Virus record (IMG/VR): IMGVR_UViG_3300046318_000318
DNA length: 64,000 nt
Strand: one strand, 5' to 3'
DNA from: a virus
Taxonomy: Duplodnaviria > Caudoviricetes
The position numbers and the translations under genes are program-made. The notes beneath the pieces were generated by a model, which was not told the origin of the DNA, searched no databases, and saw only the letters and a program-made list of their open reading frames with translations. This document shows, in pieces, positions 7,273 to 19,700 of this stretch. Within the stretch, counting starts at the first letter, position 1. Each line of letters starts with the position of its first letter.

Positions 7273-8890
7273 CGTTATCTTCAGATAAGGGCGTTAGTCC
7301 TATCTCGCACCATAACGCGCAGCTCTAGCTTTCACTAGATGTCGAGACTATATCTTTACCGTACTTTATAAATACGGTATCTTCCGTTTCGAACTCCACT
7401 CGGAGCCCTACAGGTTGGTAAAACCTTAGTCGTTGGCCACACTCCTATACGGAGCTTCGGTGCTGGGTTGTCCATTGTAATATCTCAACACTTTTTAAAA
7501 CCATGACGCTTACCGTTTCCAGTTTCGCTTTGGTAGCTGAGCTTTAGGAGTTTCCCGCAATTAGGAAGAATTCTACGTCGCTATTACTAGCAACTAGGAC
7601 TATCAGTACTCATTTCCTTAAAAGTGAATTCATCATAAGACTTTCCTGTTTTTAATCTATCTGCTAAAGTTCTTTTATCTAAGCCAATGTCAATTGTCAC
7701 TGATCTCTTACTTTTATATACTTTCACATCGCCAGTAGTCAGATTAGTAACTATTACCATTTTTGGTGGAGTGAATCTAGTTTCTCTGAAATTTTCAGGC
7801 CATTTGTCCTTTGACACTTTTCTGAACAAATAACCGCTATGCGATATCACATCAACTGATCGTAGTGCAGACTCTATGCGGTCCTGACTAACACCAGTCA
7901 ATTCTGACAATTCTTTCACCGACTTAGCTTTAACAACTTTTTTGGAATCTAGTTCCAAAGCCTCTAATAGAACTTTATGATGCTTACGAGCGGTTTGGAT
8001 GACAGCCTGGTTATATTGCCAGGTTCTCTTCCCAACGTCTTTTGTAAACATCAGCTCAAAACGATTCAGGAATAAATTTGCAACGATCTCATTACCATGT
8101 TTTCTATAAATGGGTTTAACTGACCGCATACCCAGATATTTGAAAGCTTTTTTAAGTGAATAATGCTCGCTTACACTGTCGGTTTCCCAGTCTTTTACAA
8201 GCACATTGACACTGTCTGTTTTCAAACCTGTAACCATGGCGTGGGTGTTATTTTCTTTTGATGTCACCCATTCTAAATTTTTTAAATCGTCGTTCTGTTT
8301 GTTTCCGTCGATGTGGTTAACAAAGAATTTATTTGCGGGATCGCTGTTTCTTAAAAAGGCTCGCGCAAGAAGAATGTGGACACACACACCTCTCCATCTA
8401 TTTTTATCAGGATCATATATTGATACTTCAGTATAACCATAAGAACTTCTTCGTCGATTCATTCTCTTGTATTTTAAAAGAGAAATTACATCTCCGGCTC
8501 TATTGATTATAAAACCAGGGAAACCTGGAATCAGTACATATCCATCTTTATAACAAATAGGGGTTCGTATTTCCATCAGCCACTGACATCTTAGTTTAAG
8601 CACTTTTGATTTACATTCAGTAAATGTTATCTTTTCCAATTCAGGTAAAGTCAACATAACCTCATAATGAGCCAAAAGACTTAACCAATGTCTGTGATAG
8701 GTTCTGTATACATCACCTATCAAAACACTAATAACATTCTTCTCAACTTTCACAGACGGGGAATTTTCATTTTCCTTGAACCAACATTCGTGATTCTGAT
8801 TAAAAACATATCTTTTATCCACTAATAAAGGTTTTAGCATATATAGATCCTGAGTTATTATTCTCACTCTATATATGGAATACTGCTTTA
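7273..8890 (-). mobile_element. Group I intron (1618 nt) with HNH homing endonuclease, in vRNAP beta at GD|K
   Basis: Minus-strand core elements: P AAUUGCGGGAA (7552-7562), Q CAACCCAGCAC (7460-7470), R CCAACGACUA (7427-7436), S AAGAUAUAGUCU (7345-7356). The 5' exon ends in U, the intron ends in G, IGS is GUC, and P2 has a GUAA tetraloop. Confidence 0.9.
7587..8840 (-). CDS. Intron-encoded HNH homing endonuclease (NUMOD4-like + HNH + repeated C-terminal DNA-binding modules); likely start ATG 8840 (417 aa)
   Basis: VHILLARAF...VNHIDGNKQNDDLKNLEWVTSKENNTHA HNH motif; AGGA RBS before ATG 8840. Confidence 0.88.
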   Translation of the reverse strand: MLKPLLVDKRYVFNQNHECWFKENENSPSVKVEKNVISVLIGDVYRTYHRHWLSLLAHYEVMLTLPELEKITFTECKSKVLKLRCQWLMEIRTPICYKDGYVLIPGFPGFIINRAGDVISLLKYKRMNRRRSSYGYTEVSIYDPDKNRWRGVCVHILLARAFLRNSDPANKFFVNHIDGNKQNDDLKNLEWVTSKENNTHAMVTGLKTDSVNVLVKDWETDSVSEHYSLKKAFKYLGMRSVKPIYRKHGNEIVANLFLNRFELMFTKDVGKRTWQYNQAVIQTARKHHKVLLEALELDSKKVVKAKSVKELSELTGVSQDRIESALRSVDVISHSGYLFRKVSKDKWPENFRETRFTPPKMVIVTNLTTGDVKVYKSKRSVTIDIGLDKRTLADRLKTGKSYDEFTFKEMSTDSPSC

Positions 8891-9799: not shown

Positions 9800-11162
9800 C
9801 TTACTGTCCAATAAAGTCGCTCAGCTTCACAGCTTACCCTCTTTACCCGGTGTGCTCAGACACCCGCCTATATTCTCATACAGGAACAGACTATATCTTC
9901 ACCCTCTGTATACAGTAGGGCGCTCTCCGCTTCGAATACCGCTAGGTATCCTACAGGTTGATAAAACCTTAGTCGTTGAACTTTACACATGGTTGATCAG
10001 AATCAACTTTAGCGTCTTAGCTGCTGATTGTCTCTACCTACTAATTTTCAAACACGTTACGTATGTGTTTTCACACTCCGCTTTGGTTTAGTAGTCTAAC
10101 AAGAGTTTCCAGCAATTCAAAGAGATTCTTTGAAAAGTTTCTTTTCCAAAGGACTTAACTGACTGTAATACACATACTTTCTACCGTCACGGTGAACCTT
10201 TGCTTCTTGGTTTAAACGCCAGTGTAAGGTAGTTATTTTAATACCATTATCGCTAGCGCAACTTGTGACAGACTTATATATTTTTCTTTCGTCTGTCAGA
10301 CAGTTCCAAACAGTTATGACTTTACACCCTGTGAAATTTTCATAACTTTCAATGAAATCTGTGTGTGTTACCCAAGGTATCGAATTATCATTAGGTTTAA
10401 GCTGAATAAAATTATCTATAACCGGCTGATCTTTGTTGTAAAACAACTGAGAAACATAACCTGTGCTTAAGCCTAATTTTGACGATACTTCATTACAACT
10501 ACTGTAGATAGTGATTCTTTCAATAGCTGGATATGTTCTCACCGCAACGCTTTTGTTCCTACCGTAAAGTTTTTTCGCTTCTTCTAAATCTTTTATTTCA
10601 ACCCAAGGTGTTTTATCTTTCTTCAGTTTGAATTGTTGACCAGATGGCGATAATCTTTTACCTAGGTATCTTAATCTGTATAAAACAGTATCCTTACTAA
10701 CACCAAGATGTTTGGAACATTCAATGATGCTAGGGTATTCCGATATCAAACCACTTTTAACATCTCTTACTAAAATAGGTAAACACTTTCTACTTAAGTT
10801 GTTAAGACCTGCGTGTTCAACGTTCTGTTTAGGTGTTACGATTTCAAGATTTTCAAGTGTGTTGTTGTGTTTATTACCGTCCTTATGGTTTACATACAAC
10901 TCACCAAACTTTTCATAATCGCTGCAAATAAAACAAAACGCTATCAGTCTATGCAATCCCCAAGTTAAGGTTACGCCATTATCGGATGTTAATCTAATAT
11001 TGGTGTAACCTGCTGGATTTATAGATCCTTTTAAAAACTTTTCTCTATGAAACGAAAAAACTTTTCCATCTGGCGAGACTCTGTATTTAGAGTAACCTTT
11101 TGGAATCTTAAAATTAGGTGTATTACATTCAGTCATATACAGTTCCTCACTGTATATATTTA
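9800..11162 (-). mobile_element. Group I intron (1363 nt) with HNH homing endonuclease, in vRNAP beta at DD|GKR
   Basis: P AAUUGCUGGAA (10107-10117), Q CAAUCAGCAGC (10020-10030), R GUUCAACGACUA (9970-9981), S AAGAUAUAGUCU (9888-9899); GAU| 5' site and terminal G at 9800. Confidence 0.9.
10117..11136 (-). CDS. Intron-encoded HNH homing endonuclease (339 aa)
   Basis: KYRVSPDGKVFS NUMOD4-like segment; LHRLIAFCF...VNHKDGNKHNNTLENLEIVTPKQNVEHA HNH motif; GAGGA RBS. Confidence 0.9.
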   Translation of the reverse strand: MTECNTPNFKIPKGYSKYRVSPDGKVFSFHREKFLKGSINPAGYTNIRLTSDNGVTLTWGLHRLIAFCFICSDYEKFGELYVNHKDGNKHNNTLENLEIVTPKQNVEHAGLNNLSRKCLPILVRDVKSGLISEYPSIIECSKHLGVSKDTVLYRLRYLGKRLSPSGQQFKLKKDKTPWVEIKDLEEAKKLYGRNKSVAVRTYPAIERITIYSSCNEVSSKLGLSTGYVSQLFYNKDQPVIDNFIQLKPNDNSIPWVTHTDFIESYENFTGCKVITVWNCLTDERKIYKSVTSCASDNGIKITTLHWRLNQEAKVHRDGRKYVYYSQLSPLEKKLFKESL

Positions 11163-14100: not shown

Positions 14101-14333
14101 CTGGCACCACCTTCTGTAAAGTCCGACACAAAGACATAGTCAGTAGCTATCCTGTTTTTAAAACCTTTGAAATAAAGCTTAGAAACATCAAGATCCATAC
14201 CACCATCCATAGTGAGGTGGTGGTAAACAGAATCTCTGGGAAAGCTTATGAAATCCACTATTTTTGGACTGACTAAGTTCTGTATGCGTCTGGTACCTGA
14301 TTCTCTATAGAAGAGATTAAAAAGTTTTTGCAT
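11163..14333 (-). CDS. rpoB: vRNAP beta-like subunit (gp178-like), exon 1 (1057 aa); spliced product 1057+303+68 = 1428 aa
   Basis: RIRGYER, EDINPIQ, VTYVGEGGRGKES...RAFHVSDVGVVSEASVDSGDVG (fork/Rif-region-like) motifs; the ORF ends at the splice site SQDD|UAA. Confidence 0.88.
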
Positions 14334-14338
14334 GTTGT

Positions 14339-14500
14339 TTAACCTGTCATGTTGGCCAGTGTTAACTCAAGAACATCATCTCCAGCACTGAAGTTCATCT
14401 TGTTATTTACACCGACATAGAAATCTCTAGAATTTAATTTGTTTCTGATCTCTAACTTAGACTCTTCAGACAGAACGCAAACTAAAGACATCGTATCACC
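14339..14500 (-). CDS. rpoC: vRNAP beta-prime-like subunit (gp180-like), exon 3 (GDTMS..., 53 aa)
   Basis: Starts GGT GAT ACG ATG directly after the intron terminal G at 14501 and completes ADFD|GDTM. Confidence 0.88.
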   Translation of the reverse strand, partial: GDTMSLVCVLSEESKLEIRNKLNSRDFYVGVNNKMNFSAGDDVLELTLANMTG

Positions 14501-14839
14501 CTTATTGTCCAGTAAAGTCGCTCGGTTATATAAACCTACTCTCTTTACCCGGTGTGCTAAGACACCCGCCTGTACTTTCATACAGGAACAGACCATATCA
14601 CCATCTTCAGCTTTATCTGGTAAGATGCTTCCCACTTCGGATCTGCTAGATCCTACTCCCTTACGGGATGGTCGTTGAACGTTCACCTATACGGTGCTTC
14701 GCTGCTGATAACCCAATCCTAATCTTTTCAAACCGTGGCTTTGGCTTTCGCCTCGCGGTGGTGATTAGGCTCTAAGGGTGTTCCAGCAATTCAAGAAGTT
14801 TTCATTACAGAATTTCTTCTATATGCGACAATGTTACTT
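14501..14839 (-). mobile_element. ORF-less group I intron (339 nt), downstream member of the tandem pair in the beta-prime catalytic motif
   Basis: P 14781-14791, Q 14701-14710, R GUUCAACGACCA (14669-14680), S GAUAUGGUC (14591-14599). P7 is GACCA/UGGUC, a compensatory change from GACUA/UAGUC in the other three introns. P1 is CGAU|AA/UUGUCG; P10 is GUAACAUU/GGUGAUAC (7 of 8 positions pair). Confidence 0.9.
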
Positions 14840-14845
14840 ATCGAA
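14840..14845 (-). CDS. rpoC: 6-nt micro-exon (TTC GAT = Phe-Asp) of the vRNAP beta-prime catalytic ADFDGD motif (exon 2)
   Basis: Flanked by the upstream intron end (...GGACAAUAGG|) and the downstream intron start (|AAGUAACAUUGUCG). It is the exact piece needed to rebuild LGAD-FD-GDTM in frame. Confidence 0.85.
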
Positions 14846-15256
14846 CCTATTGTCCAGTTACAGTCGTTCGGTTTCAAACCTATCATAAAGTAACCCGGTG
14901 TGCTTAGACACCCGCCTTTGGCTTTCCCAAAGGAGCAGACTATATCTTCACCCTCTGTTTATACAGTAGGGTGTTTCCCACTTCGGAGATACTATCTCCT
15001 ACACCTTGCTTAAGGGTTAGTCGTTGAACTTTACGCATGGTTGGCTATAAAGTCAACTTTAGCGTCTTAGCTGCTGATTACCCATTGTTACATTTAATCC
15101 GTTTTCAAACCTTGGCTTTGATTTTCATCTAGCGGTGGTGGATTAACTTTAGGGTGTTCCAGCAATTCAAGAAAAATCTCTTTAAATATTACTATTTAAG
15201 AGGACAATCGGATATAAAATATGAATACTTTTAACTCACTTTTTATATCCTTTTTT
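14846..15256 (-). mobile_element. ORF-less group I intron (411 nt), upstream member of the tandem pair in the beta-prime catalytic motif
   Basis: P 15157-15167, Q 15070-15079, R 15018-15029, S 14937-14948. P2 is UAAAUA-GUAA-UAUUUA; the 5' exon ends GCU GAU and the intron ends in G at 14846. Confidence 0.9.
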
Positions 15257-16702
15257 ATCAGCACCCAATCTCCCAAGCTGCTTCACAGCGGGCGAGAACG
15301 AATTATAAAAACCATTTCCGTGTATGGGAAATTCAGCACAGACAAGTTCTGTAGGTTCCCAGTTATCATCCAGTAAAGTTCTGGTGTCAGCTTCTACTGT
15401 AGACTTCAGGTACACGTAGCTTGGATATATACTACCATACCCAGTGATAGGGTAACGCGTAGCAAAACAAGGTATCTCTTCAGACCCGTGATAAACACTT
15501 AACATGATCAGCTCAGTTAAAGTGATAGGGCTCACTTCTTCTTTGCTGTATCTTTCAGGTAGTTCATCTATGTCTTGTAAGAATCGATATGTGTTGTCCT
15601 TACCTTTAAAGATCAATCCTGCGTAATGACCAGATATCTCTATATAGTCATGTCTTAGGTTCTCTTGTCCGTAAGTAGCAAAGACTTTCTCTAGACCTTC
15701 GTTGGTCATCCACTTATCGTACTCTTTACCATTGATAGGTACAGTTACTTTCTTCAGAGTCTTTTTATCTACCAGTATCATGGGTGTGTTAGGTCCTGTA
15801 AAGACCTTAGACATAAACCCATCTCTTACGTTTCTAATAGAAAGAGGTAGAGTAGCTCTTAGAAACTGATAAAGACCCACCACAGTTTGTTCTGTGGAAA
15901 CAGACTTAGGACCAAAGAGTTGTGTAGACTTACTTACATAAGAGGTAATAACGTTTCTGGTAGAATGAAAAACTTTTCTACCTGCCCACTTACCTAGTAT
16001 GAGTTTAGACTTACCTTCTAACAGATTCTTAATATACTCAAAGATCTCATTACAAGCTATCTGTAGCTGAAACCTCATGTTGTTGAAATACTCAGCATTT
16101 AACTTAGAGTCTACCGTACCTATGACACCAGAAAGAGAAAGTACTCTTCTATAGAGTCCGTTGATCTCATCTTCGCTAGGTTGACTATTCTCATCTAGAG
16201 TATAGTCTCTCATACCAGCTGGCATCACTACAAACTTATCTATCAGAGCTTTACTGATATATTTATTTACCAGCTTAATATTAAACTCTCTCTTAGGAGA
16301 TGGTCTGTCTTCAAACTTGATATCCTTATAATGCTTAACAAAGAAATCAAATCCAGTTTTACCTGTGACAGGATCAGACTTAACAAAGTCTTTAAGTTCT
16401 GTGTCAAAGACAGCGTAAGCTCTAGATGACATGATGTCACCGTAAAGACTCTTAAGATCATAAAGAGCTTTAAAGATGATAGGATGGAAGATCTGGATGT
16501 TTAGATCTATATAAGAGAACATACGGTTTCTCTTCTCTTCCCCCACCATACCGAACGTCTCAGTGCTGAATAAACCATCTGGATGAAAGTTCTTACTGAA
16601 CCCGTCCATGATGTCAAGTACTTTAACAGGTCTTAAACTTCGAATGTCTAGATCTGCTAGGTTAAGCAAATCCAGGTTAAAGGGTAAAGAAGGTGATTGC
16701 AT
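15257..16702 (-). CDS. rpoC: vRNAP beta-prime-like subunit (gp180-like), exon 1 (482 aa); spliced product 482+2+53 = 537 aa
   Basis: FHPDGLFSTETFG, VMPAGMRD, GKWAGRKVFHSTRNVIT and ATRYPITG motifs (beta-prime regions A-D). The ORF runs ...LGAD then KKGYKK* instead of FDGD. Confidence 0.9.
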
Positions 16703-16746
16703 GCTTGATCCTATGAAATTAATCGGCCTTAAAAGGATTACCCAAA

Positions 16747-19700
16747 ATGGCTAAGAATGTAAAGAAAAAATTACAACGTGATGAGTTTGATCTAGATAAT
16801 GATCTAGACTTTGATGACTTTGGTATGGATGACATATCTTCCGAAATGTCACCAGAGTCTAGTAATTCTAAATCTAGATCCCCTGTCACGGAAGTTTTTA
16901 AAGGCACCATTTCTGGTGCTGCTGGGGAAGTGGTAAGGCCTGAGTTTTTAGCTAAGACTTTAGAAGGTGCTTTACCAGAAACTTTCTCTACCAGTTTCAG
17001 CACAGCTGATAAGGTAATAGACAAAACGTCTAAGCTATATGATGATACTATCAGGGAATTAAAGCCCCAGCTTAATAACCTCGGTAGAAAAATCGATAAG
17101 CTGGTGCCTCAGGAAGAAGGTTTCCTGAGAAGAATGACAGATAAGTTCTTGGAAATGACTGGTGGTAAAGACCAGATTTCCAATTCTTCTTCTGAAGGTC
17201 AACTAGAACAAAGCATCAACAGCACAATAGCTGGAGTATTTGCAGCTAATCAAGAAGCTCAAATACAGATGTCTGCTCGTTCTAACGCACAAGAGAATGT
17301 GCGTGAAGGCGTGGCTAAGAAACGTTTCGATAGCGAAATAGGTGTCTTAGGCGGTATCCACGATAACATAGCCAGATTGACCAGCTATAACGACACTGTA
17401 ACTCAAGCTTATCAAAAGAAAAGTTTAGAGTTACAGCTGAGATCCTTCTTTGCTCAGAAAGAACTTTTAGACTTTACCAGAAAGTACCAAGAAGTATCCA
17501 CTAAGCAATTCGAGGTCATCAGTAAGAACACGGCTTTACCTGAGTTTGTTAAGATACATCAGAGTGAACGGTTTAAAGAAGAATTACAGAACAGAGCTGT
17601 AAGTAAGATAACCAATAAGTTATTTGGCGATAATAGCTTTGTGGATAACTTCTTTAAGCGTCTTACTCCTTACATAGGTGAGAAGGTTTCGGAGATAGCT
17701 CAGGGTATTGAGCAAGGTGCCGGTGCTATCGATATGATAGGCATGGGCGTGGAGACCAACAGATCAATGGGTGGGTCAGCCGCTAGTTTCTTTGGTGAGT
17801 CTATTGGCAGCATGGGGGCGGGTTACATAAGAGATCTTCTCACGCCTGAACTTAGAAAAGAAATTGAAAAAGAGTTTCCTGATCTGAAGATGACCGGTCA
17901 GAAATGGGCAAACCTTATAAAGAACCCACACGAGCTTCTTAAGAAATTCAGAAAATCTGATTGGCTGCAGGGCGGATTAAGTAGTGATAATATTGTTAAA
18001 CGTCTAGCTGCCGAGACTCTGAGCGACATGAGTCACATGGGTGATAATGAAGGACTCAAAGATTCAATAAGCGCTAGAAAAATTTATGCTGGTGATGTTC
18101 CAGGAGTCGAACAACATACCAACAGCAAGATGTTTGTTAGCGTTACCGAGATTATACCTGGCTATTTAGCCAGGATGTATCGAGAACTTAAGATCGCTAA
18201 CGGTGGTGGTGAAACAACACCTCTGACTGTCTTTGATGAAAAGGCAGGAGAGTTCAAAACTGAGGATAAACTTAAAAGCGATGTTTTAGCCAATTTGGAA
18301 AAAACAGCTAAAGATTCTTCTACGTCTTTTAACCGTAAATTAAAAGACGTTACATCTGCAATACTAGGTAATGAAAGCACACCTGAGGAACAAGAACAGA
18401 CAAACAAGTTCTTGGCGGGATTCACTTTTGAGAATTCAAGTGATACTTCCATGCAGGCTATGTTTGACAGTAAATCTTTTAAAGATCTTCCGTCAAAGAT
18501 TAGAGAAAAGTTAACAGAGAAACTATTCCATAAATTAGGGGCTGAAGCCAACCCTGAGCGTGAGGGTAATAAAGGTAGAATGATGAAGGATCTGGAAGAA
18601 CTCAGATCCATGGCTCCTAATATACAAGGTACTATCAACGATCACCTTATGGCTAACCAAACTTCCGCGTTCAATGAACTCGGTATAGTTAAAATGGATA
18701 GTGGTGGTAAGTGGAGTCTTGATAGTGACAAATACAAAGATTGGTTATTAAAACAAGCTGAGTCTGAACGATTAGGTACGTCTGACATCAACGCCAAAAC
18801 TAATATTACTAACTTTAACGGAGTGCAGCTTCCTGGACATAATGGTAAATCTGTGCTTGAAAGTTTAAGCAAGACTGGTATCTTTAATTGGAATTACAAG
18901 AAGGGTCTTGGGGAAGACACAGAGAATGCTAAGATAGGTCCTATGGCCCAAGAGGTCAAAGCCAATTTTGGTAACGCTGCTGCTCCAGATGGTAAGAAAA
19001 TAGATCTGGTTAGCATGAACGGTATAGCCATGGCTGCCATCAAAGAGTTAGATGGTAAGGTATCTAAAGTCATAGATAACAAACCTGAAAACGTCGACGA
19101 TATCTTGGAAATGGCTAAGGTACAGACAGACTATCTTAAACAAATATCTGAGAATACCAAACTAACCAATGAGAAGATGGATAACCTAGGTAAATTGACT
19201 TTACTCAATATACCTGGTATAACTATCAACAGAAACTTCTTTAAATCCATAGGTAGTTCTTTCATGTCAGCTGGTAAGCTGATTAAAGACATGACCATAG
19301 GGACTGGTAGATTTGGACTTAAACTCACAGGTGGTATATTAGGCGCTGGGTTAAAAGGCGCCGGATCTGTGGTGGGTGGTCTTTATAAGAACAAAGATAA
19401 AATAGATTCTGGTATACGCACTGTTGGCAGATTAGGAAGAGACCTTATTACTAACGTAGGAGATATGGCTTATAAAGGTGCAGAACGCTTAGGCGGTAGC
19501 GTTTTTAAGATGGCTGCGTCTTTGGTAAGAGGTACCGTGAATCTGTTTATCGATACAGATATTTATATTAAAGGTGAACTTGCTCCTCGTATCAAAAAGA
19601 TATTGGTGGAGTCTGGTGAGTATTACGATAAGCAATCTGGAACCGTCATTAAGAAGTTCTCTGATATCAAAGGTGATATCGTAGATAAGTCCGGCAACAT

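Follow-up and report, generated by a model that had tools for sequence, protein, structure and literature searches.

Located between positions 16702 and 14339 of a 64-kb stretch of DNA from an uncultured giant phage of a freshwater metagenome (IMG/VR record IMGVR_UViG_3300046318_000318, the whole of which is referred to here as the window) is a gene predicted to encode a subunit of a virion-packaged RNA polymerase (RNAP) and split into three exons inside its catalytic motif. All features of it described here are on the minus strand. Exon 1 of this virion RNAP β′ N-terminal subunit gene (16702–15257) comprises 482 codons and ends ...LGAD; its tail reads GGT GCT GAT, the last sense codon being GAT at 15259–15257, and the translation ends ...VKQLGRLGAD. 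Read without splicing, the open reading frame (ORF) from 16702 continues past LGAD with KKGYKK and then a stop. Next comes an ORF-less group I intron of 411 nt, intron A (15256–14846, ending in G14846), inserted after the first Asp codon of the motif (site A). It is followed by a micro-exon of 6 nt, TTCGAT (14845–14840), coding for the Phe-Asp in the middle of ADFDGD, and by a second ORF-less group I intron of 339 nt, intron B (14839–14501, ending in G14501), inserted after the second Asp codon (site B). Exon 3 (14500–14339) begins GGT GAT ACG, with GGTGATACGATG starting at 14500, and encodes GDTMSLVCVL...NMTG followed by the stop codon; it was delimited with PHROG 2986 and by tblastn with the C-termini of intron-less homologues.

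The two residues supplied by the micro-exon are those that the protein family requires. Exon 1 matches PHROG 2986 (an RNA polymerase subunit family of 539 positions) from position 2 to 484 with an E value of 6.9e-165, exon 3 matches positions 487–538, and exactly two positions, 485 and 486, are unaccounted for between them. Exon 1, TTCGAT and exon 3 joined together give a protein of 537 amino acids (aa) containing LGADFDGDTM (...LGADFDGDTMSL...), which aligns end to end with six intron-less homologues (536–541 aa) with zero gap at the LGAD-FD-GDTM junction. The A-D-x-D-G-D metal-binding motif is complete only once both introns are removed, each Asp being carried by a separate exon. The three Asp residues of this motif hold the catalytic magnesium of every multisubunit RNA polymerase. 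A reading of the letters of the window alone (the original prediction) had proposed this same product, with its three Asp on three exons, and the collinearity with the homologues bears it out; all of its coordinates hold, and both the KKGYKK read-through and the TTCGAT hexamer are seen in the sequence.

Judged by its predicted product, the gene is homologous to that of phiKZ gp180, the N-terminal β′ subunit in the multisubunit RNAP that is packaged in the virion, and belongs to a phiKZ-like jumbo phage. The family was assigned through PHROGs, a Pfam search of the exons having given zero matches at an E value of 0.1 or better. The nearest cultured relatives, with 35–46% identity, are jumbo phages of Ralstonia, Burkholderia, Erwinia, Klebsiella and Pseudomonas, and records of phages RAY, OBP and Moabite name their homologues as virion RNAP β′ subunits. 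Upstream is a divergent gene of 2414 aa, whose counterparts on the contigs of relatives have SLT and Peptidase_S74 matches. Downstream is a gene for a β-like subunit, an order shared with phages EL, PhiPizzaParty and PDCC-1 and with metagenomic relatives; this gene order supports the gp180-type identity.

A cmscan of the window against Rfam returned four matches, all to the group I intron model RF00028 (gathering score 50 bits) and all on the minus strand, two of which are in this gene. The core of intron A (15234–14916) scores 82.0 bits (E value 2.6e-19) and the match of intron B (14849–14569) scores 79.1 bits (E value 1.9e-18), each spanning model positions 1–253 of 253. That both are complete, ORF-less group I introns was part of the original prediction, which had named a covariance search as a check. 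Its proposed boundaries also stand: the last base is U in both upstream exons and G in both introns. These boundaries are not movable, since a shift by one base destroys codons that the protein sequence requires. The splice-site U forms a wobble pair with a G of the guide in each intron (U15257 with G15205 in intron A, U14840 with G14829 in intron B), and all 23 introns compared follow a T.

The P1 helix of intron A is formed by the guide UUGUC (15207–15203) and GAU↓AA (15259–15255; arrows mark splice sites). A guide of the form U[G]UC is found at the same place in four of seven site-A introns (L051, L047, L016 and the window), and the script's top choices differ in the other three (L001, L002 and L049). 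Between the splice site and the guide is a P1 extension hairpin (15250–15210), in which GGAUAUAAAA (15250–15241) and UUUUAUAUCC (15219–15210) form a perfect stem of 10 bp; this is the part of intron A that varies most between relatives (78–81% identity). Below the guide, P2 (15202–15178) can be read from the sequence as a 10-bp stem capped by a GUAA tetraloop, the GNRA-capped P2 noticed earlier. In intron B the guide UUGUCG (14831–14826) pairs with CGAU↓AA (14843–14838) to form P1, as given by the cmscan alignment, and the P10 strand GUAACAUU (14837–14830) pairs at seven of eight positions with the start of exon 3, GGUGAUAC (14500–14493), again as first described.

P7 is GACUA/UAGUC in intron A (15022–15018 with 14942–14938) and GACCA/UGGUC in intron B (14673–14669 with 14595–14591), so that one U-A pair is exchanged for C-G with pairing kept, the compensatory change that the original prediction had reported. 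Similar exchanges extend through the fold: in an RNAalifold consensus of 13 related ORF-less introns from sites A and B, 33 of the 59 pairs stay paired through changes on both sides, including pairs in P7, P8, P9 and the P4–P6 arms. In both introns an insertion of about 35–40 nt with hairpins follows the 5′ strand of P7 and precedes the 3′ strand of P3 (cmscan alignment; alignment columns 190–235). Extra P7.1/P7.2 helices at this place characterise subgroup IA, and the group I family to which introns A and B both belong is probably of this subgroup.

Introns A and B end in nearly the same letters. The conserved 3′ tail of intron A, CUGGACAAUAGG (14857–14846), has its counterpart in CUGGACAAUAAG (14512–14501) of intron B, and the tail of all site-A and site-B introns reads (C)UGGACA, then three to five bases, then G. 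CUGGACA is complementary to the guide (UUGUCC; AUUGUCC, up to 7 bp in the window) and also to an invariant GUUCA beside P7, with which RNAalifold pairs it in 13 of 13 introns (columns 373–377); distant introns keep UGAAC or UUGAA at this position. Apart from the read-through of the exon frame, neither intron has a sense-strand ORF of at least 40 aa, and no homing endonuclease gene was found in them by this measure. A twintron, one intron nested within another, was considered and rejected: the two are side by side, and the six coding bases between them supply two conserved residues.

The same motif is interrupted in many relatives. Among the 120 protein clusters nearest to the product, 62 run through intact and carry A-D-[FYH]-D-G-D, 25 end after the first Asp, 25 end after the second and three more end later in the motif. 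The DNA of about 55 relatives was inspected for exon ends. About 20 loci have no intron. Site A only, after G-A-D, is occupied in L016, L025/L026, L038, L047, L048, L050 and L053, and site B only, after D-F-D, in L013, L017, L018, L019 and L035. Both sites are occupied, around a 6-nt exon, in the window, L001, L002, L049 (TTTGAT) and L051 (TATGAT). Three distant contigs (L008, L012 and L032) combine site A with a site after D-G-D, leaving a 12-nt FDGD exon, TTCGACGG[CA]GAT. The guide tracks this exon, GGAGAU pairing with GUCUCC in L008 and L032 and GGCGAU with GUUGCC in L012, so that the change from GGA to GGC is matched. Compared with the window, the host genes of these twin-intron contigs have aa identities as high as 85% and as low as 44%.

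Searched with a strict pattern (P9.1, tail and FD, followed by GG or by the start of an intron), IMG/VR yielded 15 lone site-A matches and one twin, which makes twins a recurrent minority. A loose DNA pattern of intron tail plus FD gave 109 matches in IMG/VR and was dropped, this being about the number expected by chance on a rough estimate. Taken from the predicted exon ends, the motif has four insertion points that lie within ten bases, each occupied or empty in different phages and across both polymerase paralogues.

The fourth of these points is seen in Aeromonas phage PS1 (L046, MN032614.2, about 220500–220950), where an intervening sequence of about 260 nt follows GGD-FD-G (GGT↓ATTTC...↓GAC CAA); no Rfam match above threshold was found at this intervening sequence. 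The paralogous gene is represented by L171 (1552–4385; IMG/VR contig 3300046328_000321, the same contig as L001), which has four tandem RF00028 matches of 68–88 bits. A 381-aa ORF ending ...LQRN precedes these four introns, and the exons that follow are PSLL...RANH, then CCAAATGCTGAT (PNAD, 12 nt), then TTTGAT (FD, 6 nt). Judged from its translated sequence alone, this ORF looks like the non-virion RNAP β′ N-terminal gene, and the layout would mean that a close relative has introns at the same two sites in its paralogous polymerase gene. In L032 (4956–6690) the first intron holds a 436-aa ORF and seems to end in A (...ATATAAAAA↓TTCGAC) rather than the usual G; the cause may be an error in assembly, a defect of the intron or an atypical 3′ splice site.

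Codon usage at the motif differs between occupied and empty loci. All intron-occupied sites follow GAT, whereas in the intron-less loci (L003–L042) the first Asp codon is GAC in 19 of 20; at the second and third Asp of these loci, GAT is used in about a third. A U is required at the splice site, so that GAC may guard a locus against colonisation, the sample here being small.

In the splicing route that we propose, the pre-mRNA would fold into two separate ribozymes. In intron A, GAU↓AA would pair with the guide UUGUC, guanosine would attack after U15257, and exon 1 would be joined to UUCGAU after G14846. In intron B, CGAU↓AA, which includes four of the six bases of the micro-exon, would pair with the guide UUGUCG, and the P10 helix of seven out of eight pairs would align exon 3, so that GAU would be joined to GGU after G14501. 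Full splicing would give the junction GGTGCTGAT-TTCGAT-GGTGATACG and, as product, the subunit of 537 aa in which ADFDGD is whole. On paper, either intron could be spliced first. The reactions probably take place one after the other, because the P1 of intron B takes up micro-exon bases 3–6 and the only P10 open to intron A, a weak one, would need bases 2–4.

We put at roughly 85% the probability that these are two self-splicing introns at adjacent sites, removal of which restores the 537-aa subunit. Beyond the elements already cited by the original prediction, this reading draws on lone introns at each of the sites in other phages, on twins in independent lineages and on the compensatory changes in the helices.

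Several observations weigh on the other side. The P1 of intron A is short, with 5 bp of which only 3 bp are within the exon, and an in-register P10 for this intron was sought and not found; the one pairing available, UCG/CGA, is out of register by a base. UUGUC is present in both guides, the 5′ sites are both GAU↓AA and the tails differ at one of 12 bases, and with guides, sites and tails so nearly identical a faithful choice of splice sites is not guaranteed by sequence alone. Every close relative (at least 81% aa identity) carries at least one intron, which means that there is no spliced or intron-less copy of this exact gene on record. Compared with positions 14200–16800, freshwater metatranscriptome contigs from three datasets cover only parts of exon 1 (15922–16223, 16303–16517 and 16584–16734) and leave 15244–15417 and both junctions uncovered. 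Other metatranscriptome matches in the region are conserved intron-core fragments from other organisms. Two joints within contigs, from 14570 to 14932 and from 14985 back to 14671, were considered as splicing and rejected: foreign letters stand between their sides, so they are not splice junctions and are read as chimeric matches to other introns.

The similarity of the two introns raises the question of exon skipping, either as the main route or as a regulated one. Here the 5′ site of intron A would be joined to the 3′ site of intron B and 756 nt removed as a unit, giving the junction GGTGCTGAT-GGTGATACG. As the original prediction had pointed out, the skipped form keeps the frame; its computed product is 535 aa long, reads LGAD-GDTM without the Phe-Asp, and would be catalytically dead or regulatory. 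The shared UUGUC of the guides, the shared GAU↓AA of the 5′ sites and the nearly identical tails would favour such a joint, and skipping between similar group I introns has precedents in a 23-nt exon of Twort orf142 and a 34-nt exon of Coxiella 23S rRNA (both as summarised in PMC10136302). Against this, the micro-exon still codes for F/Y-D despite base changes (TTCGAT, TTTGAT and TATGAT) in five contigs, and the 12-nt version keeps FDGD through a synonymous change, which argues that the micro-exon is translated; the full D-x-D-G-D is, moreover, kept in 62 of 62 intact homologues. We regard skipping as the main or regulated outcome as improbable.

Gene decay, in which one or both introns no longer splice and the phage is defective or the gene is being lost, is very unlikely. 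It would fit introns that are devoid of any endonuclease gene, a splicing reaction that is deduced from sequence, and the apparent terminal A of the first intron in the distant twin L032. Both ribozyme cores are nevertheless complete, at about 30 bits above threshold, and the introns are 97–99% identical to copies in other phages and belong to a family with compensatory base changes. The exons are open and of full length, and the adjacent β-like gene is likewise restored exactly once its two introns are removed.

A split at the level of the protein without any splicing, into a 482-aa piece and a piece of about 50 aa started from the ATG at 14491–14489 (the Met of GDTM, four codons into exon 3 and preceded by the purine-rich AAGGGUGAU), has a parallel in jumbo-phage polymerase subunits that are already split elsewhere, but was rejected as extremely improbable: the motif, which every intact homologue has retained, would be left without Phe-Asp and its third Asp, relatives do not share the ATG (they read GDTC or GDTV), and two complete ribozymes with correct splice-site bases would be left unexplained.

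With two self-splicing introns as the preferred reading, their relationships bear on how the layout arose. Introns A and B share 70% identity in their cores; intron A groups with that of L047, and intron B with those of L013 and L001 (L001_B). Each thus groups with lone introns of its own site, and the pair is not a recent local duplication. The sequences point most likely to a motif that is a hot spot for mobile introns, with its sites colonised separately. A different history is suggested by the sequence of L051 (4435–5268), in which the introns around TATGAT are 80% identical and are mutual nearest relatives, as if one intron had hopped or been copied to the neighbouring GAU site six bases away. 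The site-A and post-DGD introns of L008 have the same mutual pattern, with 67% identity.

Movement between phages appears to have been recent. In comparisons that cite positions 14551–15150 of the window, both introns are 97–99% identical to those of L002, while the flanking exons are 68–81% identical; intron A is 97–99% identical to that of L047, in which intron B is absent, and the exons are 69–87% identical. Introns so much more alike than their flanking exons argue for recent movement between diverged phages, despite the absent endonuclease genes, and the pattern suggests spread by recombination or by endonucleases supplied in trans. Over its first 100 nt or so, exon 3 shares 87% identity with L002, a stretch that may be a co-conversion tract. 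Large ORFs do occur in site-A relatives: those of L050, L052 and L054 are 517–598 aa long with weak or faint HNH_3 matches, and the site-A introns of L048 and L053 hold a 522-aa ORF without any Pfam match.

Among cultured phages, a search for near-identity found only a 131-nt core fragment in Pseudomonas phage PAP02, where an unannotated segment of the 73-kb genome (MT080102.1, 71611–71742) is 85% identical to the P4–P6 region of intron B (window 14670–14800). A sensitive search found core pieces with 70–82% identity in 84 cultured phage records, including PhiPA3, PA7, SPN3US-like and Bacillus phages, and no tandem copy of the introns among these 84 records. By these matches the intron family is very widespread.

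The other two group I introns of the window are in the next gene, which encodes the β-like RNAP subunit (14333–7066, minus strand) and is split by them (cores 10177–9867 and 7617–7323). Each of these introns holds a large ORF, at 10117–11136 (339 aa) and 7587–8867 (426 aa). The exons of the gene (14333–11163, 9799–8891 and 7272–7066) correspond to positions 4–1050, 1052–1354 and 1355–1422 of the 1424 positions of PHROG 3148. Its first intron comes after ...SSQDD, apparently at the intron site of PhiPA3 gp210, after two conserved Asp residues.

Interruptions of polymerase genes are known from cultured jumbo phages: introns have been predicted in phiKZ gp55 and gp180 (PMC11512511), and one is also known in a polymerase gene of 201phi2-1. 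On inspection, Goslar proved to have three introns, each standing alone, of which one occupies site A of this gene (the entries being Goslar_00231, Goslar_00230, an annotated Intron_gpI and a phiKZ-gp179-like HNH gene). It resembles the window in gene, site and intron tail, with GGT GAT↓...GACAAGG↓TTC GAC GGT GAT. EL has a single site-B intron with the HNH gene gp185, PhiPizzaParty has a single site-A intron with an unannotated ORF, and PS1 has a single intron in the motif, after D-F-D-G. The introns of the cultured jumbo phages are thus single and mostly carry an endonuclease gene, whereas those of the gene described here are two, ORF-less and six bases apart, and divide the gene into three exons.

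The closest phage precedent for the tandem layout is Twort orf142, in which the skipped exon lies between the second and third of three group I introns (Landthaler and Shub 1999, as summarised in PMC10136302). Like the gene described here, it is a phage gene in which tandem group I introns that resemble each other flank a short exon, and it poses the same question of how splice sites are paired. Twort differs in that its exon is 23 nt long rather than 6 nt, in that the micro-exon described here is within a universally conserved catalytic motif, and in that skipping is documented for Twort only. The Coxiella exon likewise lies between two group I introns. Still smaller exons are found in mitochondria, with a 1-bp exon between two group IB introns of placozoan cox1 (PMC5436844) and exons of under four codons in fungal mitochondrial genes (PMC10352661). 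These share with the present gene an exon of a few bases between independently inserted group I introns that restores a conserved residue, but they are organellar, with protein-assisted splicing and old, fixed introns, whereas introns A and B are in a phage, are apparently recently mobile and occupy sites that are filled in some relatives and empty in others.

The original prediction had held the arrangement to be very unusual and without a known prior description. Literature searches combining group I introns with DFDGD, micro-exons or phage found no description of such an arrangement, and to that extent the claim stands; it was overstated in view of the single introns within the motif of cultured jumbo phages, the 1-bp mitochondrial exons and the recurrence of the twin layout itself. 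The feature is confirmed at the level of sequence, where the earlier reading is supported, and is a tighter form of a known arrangement.

PhiPA3 gp210, a virion RNAP β subunit gene, carries an intron for which a competitive role has been shown (Birkholz et al. 2024, PMC11620839). As in the window, a mobile group I intron there interrupts the virion polymerase gene of a jumbo phage within a motif of the active site; the subunit is a different one, the intron is single and has its own HNH nickase, and the competitive role was shown in that system. We offer two speculative functions for the intron pair, both of them doubtful. With guides and tails that could nearly stand in for each other, the order in which the introns are spliced, or the fidelity of the reactions, might set the ratio of ADFDGD subunits to FD-less (ADGD) subunits and so gate assembly of the virion polymerase; if true, this would act as a timing or quality gate on that assembly. 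Alternatively, double occupancy might shield the hot spot from the endonucleases of rival introns in co-infection, an idea that parallels the rivalry at PhiPA3 gp210.

In the open-access literature searched, the 6-nt exon is shorter than any reported between phage or bacterial group I introns (23 nt in Twort). It is part of a wider pattern of crowded introns in this motif, one that is apparently undescribed. The locus offers a natural system for the choice of splice sites where guides, targets and tails are near-identical, for the minimum exon that a P1 helix needs and for the spread of endonuclease-free introns. In about half of its metagenomic relatives this essential gene is cut short by gene callers, which implies that the polymerase subunits of uncultured jumbo phages are systematically mis-annotated.

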